Under the pieces are notes generated by a model that saw only the letters and a list, made by a program, of their open reading frames with translations, was not told the origin of the DNA and made no database searches. From the sequence record MW679410.1: a stretch of 64,000 nucleotides of DNA; one strand, written 5' to 3'. Each line of letters opens with the position of its first letter. Position 1 is the stretch's first letter. Positions 7,473 through 40,752 of the stretch are shown here, in pieces. This stretch comes from Escherichia phage C6. The position numbers were made by a program, and so were the translations under genes.

Positions 7473-7511
7473 AATAATTTCCTCAGTTTTAAAGTTATAA
7501 TCCGTAGGACC

Positions 7512-7541
7512 ATTATACTCTGGTCCCAAGAGTTTGTAAAC
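7512..7541 (-). promoter_or_regulatory. T4 early-type sigma70 promoter (-35 GTTTAC, -10 TATAAT)
   Basis: Minus strand GTTTACAAACTCTTGGGACCAGAGTATAAT; 18-nt spacer. Confidence 0.55.
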
Positions 7542-7741
7542 TATTTTTGTGCTTTAGCACCTTTCCAACCTTCATACATCATTGCGGCGGAAATTAACAA
7601 AGCACCCGAGCAACTTGAATATTTGTGATTCCAAAACCAGTTTAGAAAAACTTCGTCATCAATACCTTGGGCCATCATATTTTCAAAGAACTGACGACGG
7701 GCTTCAGCAATACGTTGTGATAATTTAGATTCAGGATTCAT
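7541..7741 (-). CDS. Hypothetical protein (start trimmed)
   Basis: Track ORF 7541..7789 overlaps upstream ORF; internal Met chosen. Confidence 0.35.
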   Translation of the reverse strand: MNPESKLSQRIAEARRQFFENMMAQGIDDEVFLNWFWNHKYSSCSGALLISAAMMYEGWKGAKAQK

Positions 7742-7742
7742 T

Positions 7743-7874
7743 TTAAATTTTCCAATTGCCATTTTCATCAATGAATTCAATCCAGTCATTTACTGACCAC
7801 TTGGTTGTATCGCCTTTTGGAGCCACATTTAAAGTATATAACCCTTGCTTAAAAAGCATTCGTTTGATATTCAT
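7743..7874 (-). CDS. Hypothetical small protein (start trimmed)
   Basis: Track ORF 7743..7967 overlaps upstream ORF by 86 nt; internal Met chosen. Confidence 0.3.
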   Translation of the reverse strand: MNIKRMLFKQGLYTLNVAPKGDTTKWSVNDWIEFIDENGNWKI

Positions 7875-7881
7875 ATTTTCC

Positions 7882-8175
7882 TCAGCTGTAACGATAACAT
7901 TCGTTTGATTTACGTTTTGCAACTTGATGAGAAGTATTGTAATCAGGTTCATCGTCGTTGTAAACATCTTTTTTCAGCTTTCTCACTTCTTTACGAAGCT
8001 GGCGATTCATTTCATTCTTAACTTCAGAATCAACACCGCGCATACGTTTCCACTTGTCAGAACGGAAGATATTTTCTTCAACCAAATCCTGACTTACGCC
8101 GTCCGGTGCTTTACGACGTCCGGAATAATAAAAATCTTTTACAGACAATTCTTTACGACGGATAGTTTTACCCAT
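7882..8175 (-). CDS. Hypothetical basic protein
   Basis: 97 aa, Lys/Arg-rich. Confidence 0.45.
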   Translation of the reverse strand: MGKTIRRKELSVKDFYYSGRRKAPDGVSQDLVEENIFRSDKWKRMRGVDSEVKNEMNRQLRKEVRKLKKDVYNDDEPDYNTSHQVAKRKSNECYRYS

Positions 8176-26819: not shown

Positions 26820-27119
26820 TTAGAAAGAACCAGAACCTTTAATTGTGTTCTGACGACCTTTATTTTCTAATTCAGAGTGGTCGATTTCATATGCTTGTGC
26901 TACGCCAAAGGCCTTTTTAACTTTAGCTAAAGAACCTTTAGATGTAACAATATTAAAAGTATTACCTTTGGTAAAATCAACCAAATCCACTTGTACACCC
27001 TGTTTACCGAGGCTTGCTACAATAGCATCAACATATTCTTGGTCTAAATTGCCTTGAACTCCAATTTGAAATGCTTTAGGAGCTTTGGCTTCTGTAATAA
27101 ATTCTTGATAAGTTTTCAT
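26820..27119 (-). CDS. Internal-protein-like protein with capsid-targeting sequence
   Basis: 99 aa; N-terminus MKTYQEFITEA matches the T4 internal-protein CTS. Confidence 0.65.
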   Translation of the reverse strand: MKTYQEFITEAKAPKAFQIGVQGNLDQEYVDAIVASLGKQGVQVDLVDFTKGNTFNIVTSKGSLAKVKKAFGVAQAYEIDHSELENKGRQNTIKGSGSF

Positions 27120-27639: not shown

Positions 27640-27942
27640 TTATTTACCTTTAATTGCTTTAGCTGCTTCGGTAGCCGCTTGCTGAAGGTCATCCATAGAC
27701 ATACCAAACTTAGAAGCAAAGTTATCAATTTTCTTTTCGACAGAATTCAAAGGCTTGGCCTGTTTACCTTCATTAGCGCCCGGGAGAGCGAGAATACGCT
27801 CTTTCTCAATATAAAGGCTTACAAGTTTCTTACGGTCTTTATCTGGCAAATCATGAAATGAATGGGCCTTTTTATTTACGGCGGCTTCTAATTTACCTGC
27901 AGTTACGCGGGCTTCAGTGATAAATTCTTGATAGGTTTTCAT
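27640..27942 (-). CDS. ipII: Internal protein II
   Basis: 100 aa; CTS MKTYQEFITEA; position between denV and ipIII as in T4. Confidence 0.8.
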   Translation of the reverse strand: MKTYQEFITEARVTAGKLEAAVNKKAHSFHDLPDKDRKKLVSLYIEKERILALPGANEGKQAKPLNSVEKKIDNFASKFGMSMDDLQQAATEAAKAIKGK

Positions 27943-27983: not shown

Positions 27984-28580
27984 TTAATTACCACGGGCCG
28001 CATTAGCAACGGCGTAAGCGTACTGGATATTAGCGTCTTTAAACGTACCTTTAGAGGTATCTAGTTCTGCCTTAAAGCCAGCTTTAGTCATAACATCAGC
28101 GAATTCTTTACGGAAAGCCATTGTATCAAGACCTTTCCATGTTGATTTGTGCTTGGCAAATTCAAGACCAGCGAAGTTGACAGCCTTAGCCAATTTATTA
28201 TCAATAGCCCATTTACCTGCTTTAGGTACAAATACCGGGCCTTTCTGTTTAGAGAACAGTTTTAAATTCCAGCGACGAAGGTCACCGTCGGCTTTAATAA
28301 AAGCTGCGTCCAAGTTACTAGCAACAACATCTTGGATATGGCCAAATTTAAGTCCATCAGCTTCAATATTTAGGTCGTTACGCCAGCGAAGTCCTTCCCA
28401 GGCGAAAGCTTTAAAGTCGGAAGCCTTTGTAGCTAAATACCGTTCAATAGGAGCTGTTTTAGCGTCAAAACCGTTTCCTGGGTTGTCAACGCCGTTTCCT
28501 CGGTAAGTCCACTCATCTTTATTAATGCCTTGGACCTTTCCTACAGAAGCTTCGGCGATAAATTCTTTATACGTTTTCAT
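27984..28580 (-). CDS. ipIII: Internal protein III
   Basis: 198 aa; CTS MKTYKEFIAEA; matches recalled T4 IPIII length and sequence blocks. Confidence 0.8.
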   Translation of the reverse strand: MKTYKEFIAEASVGKVQGINKDEWTYRGNGVDNPGNGFDAKTAPIERYLATKASDFKAFAWEGLRWRNDLNIEADGLKFGHIQDVVASNLDAAFIKADGDLRRWNLKLFSKQKGPVFVPKAGKWAIDNKLAKAVNFAGLEFAKHKSTWKGLDTMAFRKEFADVMTKAGFKAELDTSKGTFKDANIQYAYAVANAARGN

Positions 28581-28662: not shown

Positions 28663-29061
28663 TTATTTGTAGGTTTTCATCCAATTCTTGAACAAAGCCG
28701 CGACGTCTTTCTCTTTAACGTTCAGTTTAACGTCCAACATTTTACCACCCGCTGCTCTCGTTTGGCGAATCTTAGCAGTACCGGTTTCACCATTCCACTC
28801 AACATAATACTGTCCAGTGTTCATTGCAATACCGTCACCGTAGTCTTCATTTTTAGAAGTGGTGAAGGCCAGCTTCATAGTCTTAGAGACGCGAGCCTGC
28901 ATGCCTGTCTGCAGAGCGTTACGAACTCGAATAACCTGAGGAGTGGCCTGGGTCAGGTTCTCATTCAGTTCTTCAGTGAACTCTTCAGATTCAAACATAT
29001 CCAAAAGTTCTTTAGATGCAGGAATTACATTCTCTGCGATAAATTCATTATAAGTTTTCAT
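28663..29061 (-). CDS. Additional CTS-bearing internal-protein-like protein
   Basis: 132 aa; N-terminus [11 protein letters not shown]; C-terminus ends ...NWMKTYK, a vestigial CTS start. Confidence 0.6.
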
Positions 29062-36969: not shown

Positions 36970-37233
36970 TTATTTCATATTATTGAAATAATCTTCCGCA
37001 TCAAAATCGTTATCATGATAAACTTTGGTAGACGATTTGGCGTAACCTTCAGCTGAGAACATATTAATCACAACTTTAATTGTATACCACTGTCCATCTT
37101 CATTACCCATTACTGCATAGGTTTCATACACTGGGTGTTCAGGACCGATAACCTTAATATCGTTAACTGTGGCACCAAATTCTTCCGGAACGCATTTCAT
37201 AAAGAAATTAAACAATTCACCATAATTATCCAT
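36970..37233 (-). CDS. Hypothetical protein (start trimmed to MDNYGELF)
   Basis: Track start is GTG; internal ATG with SD AAGGAGA. Confidence 0.5.
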   Translation of the reverse strand: MDNYGELFNFFMKCVPEEFGATVNDIKVIGPEHPVYETYAVMGNEDGQWYTIKVVINMFSAEGYAKSSTKVYHDNDFDAEDYFNNMK

Positions 37234-37268
37234 TTTACTCTCCTTCACTCTGTTGTTTTGATAGGTCT

Positions 37269-37297
37269 ATAGTATCATGTTTAAAGTAGGTGTAAAC
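37269..37297 (-). promoter_or_regulatory. T4 early-type promoter
   Basis: Minus strand GTTTAC, 17-nt spacer, TGATACTAT. Confidence 0.6.
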
Positions 37298-37356
37298 AAC
37301 TTTGTGAAATTATTTTTAGTCTAAACCCCCAAAAAGGAGACCGAAGTCTCCTTTCA

Positions 37357-37974
37357 TTATTTACGGGTCTTTTCGAACTGAGCGGCGTCACCAGCAAGGC
37401 GGCGTGCTTGACGAAGTTTGTTGTCGATTTCTTCGTGCATAGGCTGGGTATACTTAAGGCCTTCAACCGTCAGATAGAGACGATAAAGGTCTGGGGTATC
37501 CAGGTTGTTAATGTGCTGTCCGTTACGAAGAGCATTGAACTCTCGAACGAGTTGTTTAGTTTCAGATTCGATTTCCGAAACCAAAGAAGCCAGTTGATTA
37601 TATTTTTTAACTATAGTGCTGGTGTCAAACTTGATTTTAGGTTTAGGAGCTTCTTTTACCGGTTCGGCTTTAGGCGTTGGTTTCGGCGCTGCAACTTTGG
37701 TCTGGGCCACAGGTTTAGCAACAGGAGCTTTAGCTGGTTTAGCAGGCTTAGTAGCGCCGCCAGCTACGATATCTTTAAAAGCTTTGGAAGCTTTGTAATA
37801 TTCTTTCTGGTTACTAGTATCAAAACCATACATATCATAAACGTTTTTAAAGAACTCAGTACTAGTTTTAGCCCCAGAAATTTTATCATAAGCGGCTTGC
37901 CACATATCTTTAGTCATGCGCACGCCGGCTTCAGTCAGAATGTTTTCGTTCAAAAATTCATTGTAAGTTTTCAT
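37357..37974 (-). CDS. CTS-bearing internal-protein-like protein with Pro/Ala/Lys-rich linker
   Basis: 205 aa; N-terminus MKTYNEFLNEN; low-complexity KPAKPAKAPVAKPVAQTKVAAPKPTPKAEPVKEAPKPK segment. Confidence 0.6.
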   Translation of the reverse strand: MKTYNEFLNENILTEAGVRMTKDMWQAAYDKISGAKTSTEFFKNVYDMYGFDTSNQKEYYKASKAFKDIVAGGATKPAKPAKAPVAKPVAQTKVAAPKPTPKAEPVKEAPKPKIKFDTSTIVKKYNQLASLVSEIESETKQLVREFNALRNGQHINNLDTPDLYRLYLTVEGLKYTQPMHEEIDNKLRQARRLAGDAAQFEKTRK

Positions 37975-38007
37975 TATTGTTTCCTGTGTTAATTAACTTA
38001 TCTATTT

Positions 38008-38040
38008 ATACAAAAAAGGCCCAACCTTTCGGAAGGGCCT
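38008..38040 (-). terminator. Rho-independent terminator ending the tRNA transcript
   Basis: Minus strand AAAGGCCC-loop-GGGCCTTTTTTG. Confidence 0.55.
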
Positions 38041-38217
38041 TTAACCTAGGGTAACCTTGTCGGGGTTCCACCTGCTAGGCAAGTGTTCAAAAATAAGGTG
38101 CGCCGTTTCAGCTGTGAGATAAGGGACTTTAAGAGGAACTCATGTACGCCTTAAAGTCGGGTCTTATTCAGGGAACTTCAGTCCGACGACTTACCGGTAG
38201 CGACCCGGTTTCTTGTT
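38041..38217 (-). ncRNA. Candidate structured small RNA downstream of tRNA-Arg
   Basis: About 175 nt without a protein ORF; several stem-loops (e.g. GACTTTAAG...CTTAAAGTC); no tRNA cloverleaf found. Confidence 0.25.
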
Positions 38218-38293
38218 TGGCCGAGACAGTAGGGATCGAACCTACGACCCAGGACTTAGAAGGTCCTTGCTCTTCCTTCTGAGCTATGCCTCG
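38218..38293 (-). tRNA. tRNA-Arg (anticodon UCU)
   Basis: Manual cloverleaf: 7-bp acceptor, GGTTCGATCC T-arm, anticodon loop CTTCTAA, encoded CCA. Confidence 0.75.
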
Positions 38294-38297
38294 TATT

Positions 38298-38372
38298 TGG
38301 CGGACATGCATGGATTCGAACCATGGACCAATTGATTAACAGTCAACTGCTCTGCCACTGAGCTACACATCC
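38298..38372 (-). tRNA. tRNA-Asn (anticodon GUU), putative
   Basis: Manual cloverleaf: T-loop TTCGAAT, anticodon loop CTGTTAA, encoded CCA; acceptor has two G-U pairs. Confidence 0.55.
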
Positions 38373-38376
38373 AAAT

Positions 38377-38450
38377 TGGTGGCCCTGGGTGGAATCGAAC
38401 CACCATCCAGCGATTATGAGTCGCTCGCTTGACCGTCCAGCTACAGGGCC
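38377..38450 (-). tRNA. tRNA-Ile/Met (anticodon CAU)
   Basis: Manual cloverleaf: perfect 7-bp acceptor, T-loop TTCGATT, anticodon loop CTCATAA, encoded CCA; T4 tRNA-Ile also uses CAU. Confidence 0.75.
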
Positions 38451-40252: not shown

Positions 40253-40525
40253 TTATTTTAAATAAATTGCATACTTTTTATAACCAGCCGTTTCGTGACG
40301 CAGCCCTTTTTCATTAGCAAAACGTTCAATATTGTTAATTTGATTCCGGTCAAGCTCTGAAGTATCAAAAACAAAAAAATTTCGCTTATTGCCTAAAGTT
40401 ACGTGATTAGTCAAATCAATGTTATAGAGATGATTTATATCATCAATCATAGTCTTAACAGATTTGTTAATTTTTACTTCCTCATTAAGAATAGATTCAG
40501 AGATAAATTCTTGATAAGTTTTCAT
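40253..40525 (-). CDS. CTS-bearing internal-protein-like protein (ipI-locus position)
   Basis: 90 aa; N-terminus MKTYQEFISES. Confidence 0.6.
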   Translation of the reverse strand: MKTYQEFISESILNEEVKINKSVKTMIDDINHLYNIDLTNHVTLGNKRNFFVFDTSELDRNQINNIERFANEKGLRHETAGYKKYAIYLK

Positions 40526-40526
40526 T

Positions 40527-40752
40527 TTATTCTACGCCAGCGGCTTTCAAAAGTTTTTTAAGATTGGCCGTGCCTTGAGCAGAAAATGTGACCTTGCCGT
40601 CTTTTTCGCCGATACTCCCGGTCAATTTAGCAAGTTTATCACTAGGGATTTTTTTAAAATCAGCCAATGTACCGTCAAAGGTTTTTGTAACAACTGGCAG
40701 TTGGTCTTCGTGTTTTTTTAGCTTCGGTAATAAATTCTTGATAAGTTTTCAT
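40527..40752 (-). pseudogene. Frameshifted CTS-bearing gene (A7/T7 homopolymer)
   Basis: ATG-MKTYQEFITEAKK then stop after 25 codons; removing one base of the 7-nt homopolymer near 40713-40719 restores a 74-aa ORF ending at 40527; no intact ORF in the track. Confidence 0.5.

Follow-up and report, generated by a model that had tools for sequence, protein, structure and literature searches.

The internal proteins (IPs) IPI, IPII and IPIII of phage T4 are basic, are present in about 300 copies each and bind DNA at low salt, with only their lysines touching the phosphates of the DNA. IPI is an inhibitor of GmrSD, and infection of the Escherichia coli strain ECOR17 requires IPIII. A review of the work of L. 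Black describes that the first 10 residues of IPIII (MKTYQEFIAE), the capsid targeting sequence (CTS), are enough for packaging; that residues 4 and 7 of the CTS matter in targeting, and residues 8 and 10 in processing, as mapped experimentally; that the prohead protease gp21 cleaves after L/I-x-E; and that the IP propeptides comprise 10-19 residues (PMC9026906). Hyperplastic regions and promoter-terminator cassettes termed PeSLs have been described in T4-type genomes, the PeSLs having been defined in RB49/phi1, PST and nt-1 and not in Dhakavirus (Arbiol et al. 2010; Comeau et al. 2014; PMC2839356, PMC4122927). The gene studied here occupies positions 37357..37974 (minus strand) of a window of 64,000 nucleotides from Escherichia phage C6 (MW679410.1), the window being the whole stretch of DNA that was analysed. 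Its product is very probably an internal head protein of the T4 type that is packed in the head and injected with the DNA, and it belongs to an unnamed, domain-shuffling family.

The window is that of a Dhakavirus, a JS98-like T4-type coliphage, and has 94% nucleotide identity to JS98; the 3-kb stretch around the gene is 94% identical to both JS98 and IME281. The open reading frame (ORF), which a previous sequence-only reading had reported without stating its strand, proved to be a real gene on the minus strand, spanning exactly these positions with 205 codons and a TAA stop and encoding a product with the N-terminus MKTYNEFLNENILTEAG. It is the ortholog of JS98 orf135 (YP_001595264) and is 94-96% identical to its Dhakavirus orthologs, the orf135-type gene being labelled 'hypothetical protein' in all records seen. 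The 205-aa protein matched phrog_2280 (E 1.8e-58), which carries the label 'unknown function', and a Pfam scan found no domain in it, nor any above threshold in 41 family members. An overlapping ORF on the plus strand (37408-37992) was dismissed as an artefact of the low-complexity tract; nothing speaks for it, and it is the minus-strand gene to which homology, Shine-Dalgarno sequence, late promoter and flanking hairpins belong.

Capsid targeting sequence, late promoter and virion presence of an ortholog

The protein begins with MKTYNEFLNE-NILTE-AG. Residues 1-15 (37930..37974, minus strand) form a predicted propeptide of which residues 1-10 are the CTS. MKTYNEFLNE is identical to the T4 sequence MKTYQEFIAE at 7 of 10 positions, and Tyr4, Phe7, Leu8 and Glu10 are all present. 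Two prohead-protease motifs of the gp21 type occur in this leader, LNE closing with E10 and LTE with E15, which places the length of the propeptide within the 10-19-residue range of T4. No [LI]-x-E motif was found elsewhere in the 205 residues, and the mature protein should therefore survive the prohead protease. The predicted mature protein has 190 aa, a mass of 21.3 kDa, a pI of 9.7 and a net charge of +12, and is as such a basic protein of the size of IPIII. In an alignment of 41 relatives, [LIVM]-x-E ended at position 9-10 in nearly all and a second such motif was present at 14-19, right before the conserved domain, in most; E15/A16 was invariant or nearly so. Leaders in the family were 9-19 aa long. 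In those of canonical length position 4 was Tyr or Phe and position 7 Phe or Ile, and in leaders one residue shorter these residues were shifted one position earlier.

Seven ORFs in the window, including the present one, start with MKTY[QNK]EF. Five further intact CTS ORFs were located on the minus strand at 26820-27119, 27640-27942 (IPII-like), 27984-28580 (IPIII-like), 28663-29061 and 40253-40525. Four of the five other CTS ORFs that were scanned fell in PHROGs annotated as internal head or virion protein, a 25-aa ORF being outside the scan; the ORF at 28663-29061 belongs to phrog_15461, of unknown function. Phage C6 is predicted to encode six or more putative packaged proteins, and two of these (that at 28663-29061 and the present one) lack an annotation of this kind. 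The 25-aa ORF is part of a CTS-bearing ORF at 40527-40752 (minus strand) that is split by a frameshift: the frame starting with MKTYQEFITEAKK ends after 25 codons (40675-40752), and the remainder (..HEDQLPVVTKTFDGTLADFKKIPSDKLAKLTGSIGEKDGKVTFSAQGTANLKKLLKAAGVE) runs in another frame to 40527, with an A7 run (GCTAAAAAAACACG) at the junction. The split may stem from an error of sequencing, from slippage during transcription or translation, or from pseudogenisation of an internal-protein gene.

In BLASTP comparisons with the IPII-like, IPIII-like and other CTS proteins of the window, only residues 1-15, and at most 1-31, of the protein aligned. Membership in the IPI, IPII or IPIII families was rejected, since homology is confined to the leader region and the protein falls in a separate PHROG, phrog_2280, instead of the IP PHROGs 2667, 7857, 5341 and 7673. 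It differs from the T4 proteins in that it has no similarity to any IP past the first 10-15 residues, that its leader is non-canonical in most genera of the family, and that the family has two domains, joined by a long disordered Lys/Pro/Ala linker and subject to shuffling. The likeness resides in the leader of the MKTYQEFIAE type, the L/I-x-E motifs, the length of the propeptide, the basic mature protein, a predicted late expression, the presence of an ortholog in virions, and the position in the hyperplastic region from e over the tRNA genes to 57B, where genes of the ipI, ipII and ipIII type lie. Judged by the features that can be tested on sequence, the gene product is a putative internal protein of the T4 type.

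The predicted late expression follows from the elements in front of the gene. AGGAAA (37980..37985, minus strand), located 5 nt upstream of the ATG, is recognisable in the sequence itself as a Shine-Dalgarno sequence. A T4-type late promoter, TATAAATA (38003..38010, minus strand), begins 36 nt upstream of the ATG. On the minus strand the order is: a hairpin with GNRA loop followed by T6, TATAAATA, AGGAAA, the ATG (37974), the ORF, a second hairpin and an early promoter for the downstream gene e.8. The octamer is not enriched across the whole window (8 observed versus 7.6 expected), and its evidential weight is therefore limited to its position and conservation. At eight of the eight other loci with upstream sequence (JS98, JS09, CHI14, Kosakonia phage 305, PG7, MY02, IME523 and the metagenome locus L009) (T/G/C)ATAAATA was present at -35 to -43. 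Because the position of the promoter is conserved across these six named genera and one metagenome contig, the gene is expected to be expressed late, and the row of hairpin, TATAAATA, Shine-Dalgarno sequence, ORF and hairpin is a predicted autonomous late transcription unit.

For a close relative the presence in the virion has been determined directly. The ortholog in Mosigvirus vB_Eco_mar005P1, MAR005P1_00015, has 208 aa and 64.9% aa identity, occupies the same genomic slot, is identical at the nucleotide level (100%) to the gene at the comparison locus L015, and has a non-canonical leader, MYTFNEFLAETEVITE. Its GenBank note reads 'confirmed structural protein by MS'. Nano liquid chromatography-tandem mass spectrometry of CsCl-purified mar005P1 virions had identified five proteins only; besides the ortholog these were the tail sheath, a protein of the prohead core, the major capsid protein and the packaged ADP-ribosyltransferase (PMC6563131). 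Absence from virions, which the sequence-only reading had named as one outcome that would refute it, is thus contradicted for a close relative, as mass spectrometry (MS) found the 65%-identical ortholog in purified virions. Its description of the product as a packaged protein is well supported by the CTS with the functionally mapped positions, the conserved late promoter and this ortholog.

A cytoplasmic late protein that merely carries a CTS-like N-terminus and is not packaged would require that the ortholog was detected through carry-over contamination. The proteome of the ortholog's phage is shallow, which leaves some room for this, and no family peptides were found in the part covered of the supplements to the virion proteomes of the Jiaodavirus ValerieMcCarty, a negative that carries no weight because the only copy of the gene examined (that of phage 01, outside the two phages analysed by MS) is truncated. 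However, the CTS pattern and the cleavage motifs are conserved across genera, as is the late promoter, and in the CsCl-purified particles the ortholog was accompanied by four bona fide virion proteins, one of them the packaged Alt enzyme, and by no other contaminant. We therefore regard this explanation as very improbable.

Domain architecture and the Lys/Pro/Ala tract

The sequence and an AlphaFold2 model, calculated with the 41-sequence alignment, bore out the architecture proposed from the sequence alone, i.e. a CTS, a short N domain, a low-complexity tract of about 40 residues and a helical C domain. The N1 domain (residues 16-73; 37756..37929, minus strand) has three helices, predicted at residues 22-30, 38-49 and 56-71 with a predicted local distance difference test score (pLDDT) of about 83, and contains the conserved residues R19, T21, W25, G50, Y59, A65 and K67. 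The linker rich in Lys, Pro and Ala (residues 74-113; 37636..37755, minus strand) has a net charge of +8 and is predicted to be disordered, the pLDDT over residues 74-109 being about 33. The C1 domain (residues 114-205; 37360..37635, minus strand) consists of three long helices, predicted at residues 119-150, 161-174 and 177-203 with a pLDDT above 90, and has a conserved loop, NGQHINNLDTPDLY; no specific fold or sequence match was obtained for it.

The tract as originally quoted, KPAKPAKAPVAKPVAQTKVAAPKPTPKAEPVKEAPKPK, corresponds to residues 76-113. Residues 75-113 (39 aa) contain 10 K, 10 P, 9 A, 4 V, 3 T, 2 E and 1 Q and no R, with a net charge of +8. The binomial probability of 29 of 39 residues being P, A or K is 7e-15 against a background of 17%, which was taken from the 50 long ORFs of the window; 29 is also the maximum in any stretch of 39 aa of these ORFs. 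The DNA coding for the linker has 53% GC versus about 35% in the flanks. It contains a 9-nt repeat in 2.6 copies (37729-37751, encoding a KPA unit), which matches a 202/205-aa length polymorphism within Dhakavirus.

A tract of this kind separates two helical parts in about 60 relatives from several genera, that is, in every member except P0063, which has almost none. The conservation of the feature in these homologs implies that the tract is neither a product of chance nor an antisense artefact. Apart from P0063 its length ranges from 11 to 43 residues. Across the family its net charge is +1 to +9 and at least +2 in all but one member; it has 0-3 acidic residues and never an Arg. At the same time it is the least conserved segment: compared with the Mosigvirus ortholog, identity is 83% in the N domain, 40% in the linker and 76% in the C domain. 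As the positive charge, carried by Lys only, is kept while sequence and length vary, it is the composition and the sign of the charge of the tract that are selected, and not its sequence.

The tract had been called histone-H1-like. This holds for its composition, with K, P and A making up 29 of the 39 residues, and its predicted disorder (pLDDT about 33), which it shares with the tail of histone H1 and with the bacterial H1-like proteins AlgP and Hc1/Hc2, all having a low-complexity tract of Lys, Ala and Pro in which the basic residue is Lys and not Arg. It does not hold for the H1 globular domain, the S/TPKK motifs or the long tandem repeats. Neither an H15 nor a winged-helix domain was found by Pfam in the 41 members; there are no S/TPKK or KPAA arrays, the 9-nt repeat being the only one; and the tract is only about 40 residues long with about 26% Lys, whereas H1 tails have about 40% Lys. 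The charge density of about +0.2 per residue is about half that of an H1 tail. The likeness to H1 is a compositional analogy and not homology.

Extended X-Pro-rich segments that join two folded domains are also found in TonB and in the E2 component of 2-oxoacid dehydrogenases. The TonB equivalog model NF008084 matched the protein over the Pro-rich tract only, with an E-value of 0.0046 and 16.9 bits versus a cut-off of 315, and the match of E2 to the tract had an E-value of 2.8. Both identities were rejected as low-complexity noise far below the family thresholds; moreover, the flanking domains, the cellular location and the biology of these proteins are unlike those of the phage protein.

Their linkers do illustrate how the tract might otherwise be understood: in a packaged internal protein it could be a flexible or semi-rigid spacer and a joint that tolerates recombination, its positive charge serving only to avoid repulsion from the packed DNA. 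The predicted disorder, the poor conservation and the wide variation in length (about 5 to 43 residues) fit this, as do the near absence of a K/P/A tract from P0063 and the nature of the only database matches to the tract, which are of low complexity and to spacer regions of TonB, IcmG/DotF and E2. The flanking domains are furthermore exchanged independently of each other, and there is one nucleotide breakpoint at the boundary of N domain and linker, Q7622 and PG7 sharing codons 16-73 only (see below). On the other hand, a neutral spacer would not need a charge that is net positive in every member, with 0-3 acidic residues and no Arg, and the surroundings of the tract are DNA at about 500 mg/ml, in which the lysines of the T4 IPs have been seen on DNA phosphates. 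We consider a pure spacer possible, with the odds somewhat against it. The strict conservation of a Lys-only positive charge leans towards an interaction of the tract with DNA over a spacer function alone. DNA binding by the tract is plausible by analogy, and an association with DNA is a reasonable assumption given the pI of 9.7 and net charge of +12 of the mature protein, the always positive, Lys-only tract, and the contacts that the T4 IP lysines make with DNA phosphates.

Domain exchange and the flanking elements

With the window protein as query tblastn found the family in 138 phage records, and with the PG7 homolog as query in 189; its genera include Dhakavirus, Mosigvirus, Winklervirus, Kanagawavirus, Karamvirus, Marfavirus and Jiaodavirus. 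A hidden Markov model (HMM) search of 1.84 billion representative proteins gave only 22 matches, from which it follows that the family is narrow. The full-length matches were family members or domain-swapped variants, and the remaining ones were several short fragments and two low-complexity matches in giant proteins. Those members from the word-indexed and HMM searches that were traced to their source contig came from T4-type phage records or had T4-type neighbouring genes.

When the proteins were cut at the linker and the halves clustered, 59 members could be classified, 58 of which had an N part. The combination N1-C1 was found in 39 members, N1-C2 in 13 and N2-C2 in two, while N1-C3, N3-C1, N4-C1 and N5-C1 occurred in one member each. 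Overall there are at least five N types and three C types. N1 is present in 53 of the 58 members with an N part, and C1 is replaced by the unrelated C2 or C3 in some relatives. In two of the three variants whose source contig was examined an e.8-type gene (Phage_T4_Y16K) directly follows, which places these two in the same slot as the gene of phage C6.

The exchange can be followed at the level of the DNA. The Kanagawaviruses phage 305 (N1-C1) and IME523 (N1-C2) are 89-95% identical in both flanks; the similarity ends 68 nt into the gene, past the leader, and restarts about 40 nt beyond the stop codon. Between Q7622 (Kanagawavirus) and PG7 (Karamvirus), within the gene and its immediate flanks, blastn found only codons 16-73, i.e. 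N1, to be shared (87%), and the protein match stops at residue 76, where the linker begins. The DNA breakpoints are located behind the CTS, at the linker and beyond the stop codon. Such shuffling is the behaviour known for T4-type hyperplastic regions and PeSL cassettes, and also fits the hypervariability of internal proteins.

In Klebsiella phage ValerieMcCarty01 the family member (2501-2677 of its locus) is truncated to 58 codons, an N1-domain remnant that is followed by stop codons in all frames. This truncation indicates that the gene is dispensable in this Jiaodavirus.

These observations bear on an alternative in which the protein would mainly serve morphogenesis in the prohead core, as an accessory scaffold like gp67 or gp68 or with the assembly role ascribed to IPIII, and would not be an injected effector. 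The protein is all-helical, and weak coiled-coil (COMP) matches were obtained in the first C-domain helix of 7 of 41 members; the detection of the ortholog among only five virion proteins of mar005P1 implies a high abundance; and for T4 it has been described that IPIII mutants have head assembly defects and that the IPs co-purify with gp22 (PMC9026906). However, the gene is absent from many T4-type phages, with 138 tblastn records versus 753 that match the 3-kb neighbourhood query, it is truncated in ValerieMcCarty01, and in close relatives unrelated domains take the place of its own. Because of this patchy presence, truncation and domain replacement the gene looks like a dispensable accessory gene and not like an assembly factor, and a chiefly morphogenetic role is unlikely.

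The gene lies between the e.8 homolog (36970-37248, minus strand) and a tRNA-Met/Asn/Arg cluster (38218-38450, minus strand), and is bounded on each side by a stem-loop and a promoter, as are PeSL cassettes. On the upstream side the hairpin GGCCCTTCCGAAAGGTTGGGCC with a GNRA loop and T6 (38012..38039, minus strand; -17.8 kcal/mol, z -3.0) resembles a terminator, and it would close the tRNA/small-RNA unit and insulate the late gene. Immediately past the stop codon a terminator-like hairpin, AAAGGAGAC-UUCG-GUCUCCUUU (37333..37354, minus strand; -13.9 kcal/mol, z -2.9), is followed by a T4-type early promoter (TTTACA, 16 nt, TACTAT and the extended repeat TACTATAGACCTATCAAAAC; 37255..37296, minus strand) that serves the downstream e.8. 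This hairpin and the early promoter of e.8, with its repeated extended sequence, form a predicted PeSL-like terminator-promoter cassette that bounds the gene. The upstream element differs from the described PeSLs in that it carries the late promoter TATAAATA and not an early one.

The extended early-promoter repeat TACTATAGNCCTATCAAAAC has seven minus-strand copies in the window (15738, 17139, 21176, 31775, 37255, 40207 and 40776) versus 0.03 expected by chance. Several of these, including the copy that bounds the present gene, are located directly after a hairpin in a PeSL-like manner. Compared with window positions 37950-38039, JS98 (7500-8170 of its locus) has an extra gene, orf136, between tRNA-Arg and orf135, which encodes 184 aa with a hydrophobic N-terminus and no CTS. 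Copies of the same hairpin and TATAAATA element flank orf136 on both sides. The duplication of hairpin and promoter around an inserted gene, and the replacement of cassettes between close relatives, are again as in PeSL cassettes, and the duplicated JS98 element represents a late-promoter counterpart of the early promoter/stem-loop cassettes that mediate gene insertion in T4-type phages.

Directly 3' of tRNA-Arg a non-coding stretch of about 175 nt (38042-38217, minus strand) ends in the GNRA hairpin and T6. Its conservation extends to JS98 and, in part, to JS09 (78% over 38099-38218). A search of Rfam with the non-coding stretch upstream of the gene gave no family, and its fold z-score is only -1.9. 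The position corresponds to that of the stable RNAs C and D of T4, which lie next to tRNA-Arg. The stretch may be an unannotated small RNA.

Proposed route into the host and role

By analogy with IPI, IPII and IPIII of T4 the following course can be proposed. The leader would bind to the gp22 scaffolding core, by which the protein would be built into the prohead, and gp21 would remove the 15-residue leader after Glu15, possibly with a first cleavage after Glu10. The mature basic protein of 190 aa would stay in the head among the DNA, with the lysines of its extended linker against the DNA phosphates. On infection it would leave with the DNA via portal and tail, as two narrow helical bundles on a thread, and would then act in the host cytoplasm. 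There the terminal domains would most likely function as a host-directed effector, in anti-defence or in host take-over; an effector role is suggested by the locus, a hyperplastic slot in which phage genera exchange N and C domains with one another. We put the probability of the whole explanation, that of a CTS-targeted, gp21-processed internal protein that is co-injected with the DNA and acts on the host, at roughly 0.7.

Several points weigh against this explanation. The leaders outside Dhakavirus depart from the canonical sequence (MLNFKEF.., MLKFKDIL.., MYTFNEF..), and that of the PG7 family member is non-canonical although other CTS proteins of PG7 keep MKTYNEF or MKTYQEF; outside Dhakavirus their function as a CTS is suggested by the conservation of the pattern. 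The MS study of the ortholog was shallow, with five proteins, and its detection pertains to the virion as a whole and not to the inside of the head. Presence in the virion is known from the ortholog, from which, together with the sequence features described above, we infer packaging, processing and injection for phage C6 itself. In TonB and in the E2 component of 2-oxoacid dehydrogenases, similar Pro/Lys/Ala tracts act purely as spacers, and DNA binding by the tract of the phage protein is a plausible proposal drawn from its charge and from its likeness to the T4 IPs. The structure and profile searches with both domains gave no match pointing to any activity, and the anti-defence role is suggested by analogy and by the plasticity of the locus.

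More tentatively, the slot between e.8 and the tRNA genes might hold a combinatorial injected effector of two modules, in which the linker would be a DNA tether for co-injection as well as a frame-tolerant recombination joint, and in which the modules would target host defence. At present we consider this proposal doubtful in its entirety.

No new principle is involved, since targeting by the CTS, hypervariability of IPs and shuffling of cassettes were already established. The gene does illustrate how injected proteins exchange cassettes at the level of domains, and it offers a naturally occurring two-domain cargo that has a basic tether, of relevance where T4-type capsids are engineered for protein delivery. 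Internal proteins are the first phage proteins in the host cytoplasm, and the known examples neutralise host defences. The family occurs in many coliphages that are therapeutic candidates and also in phages of Klebsiella and Enterobacter. As a very probably packaged, modular family it is a concrete candidate for determinants of host range or anti-defence in these phages.

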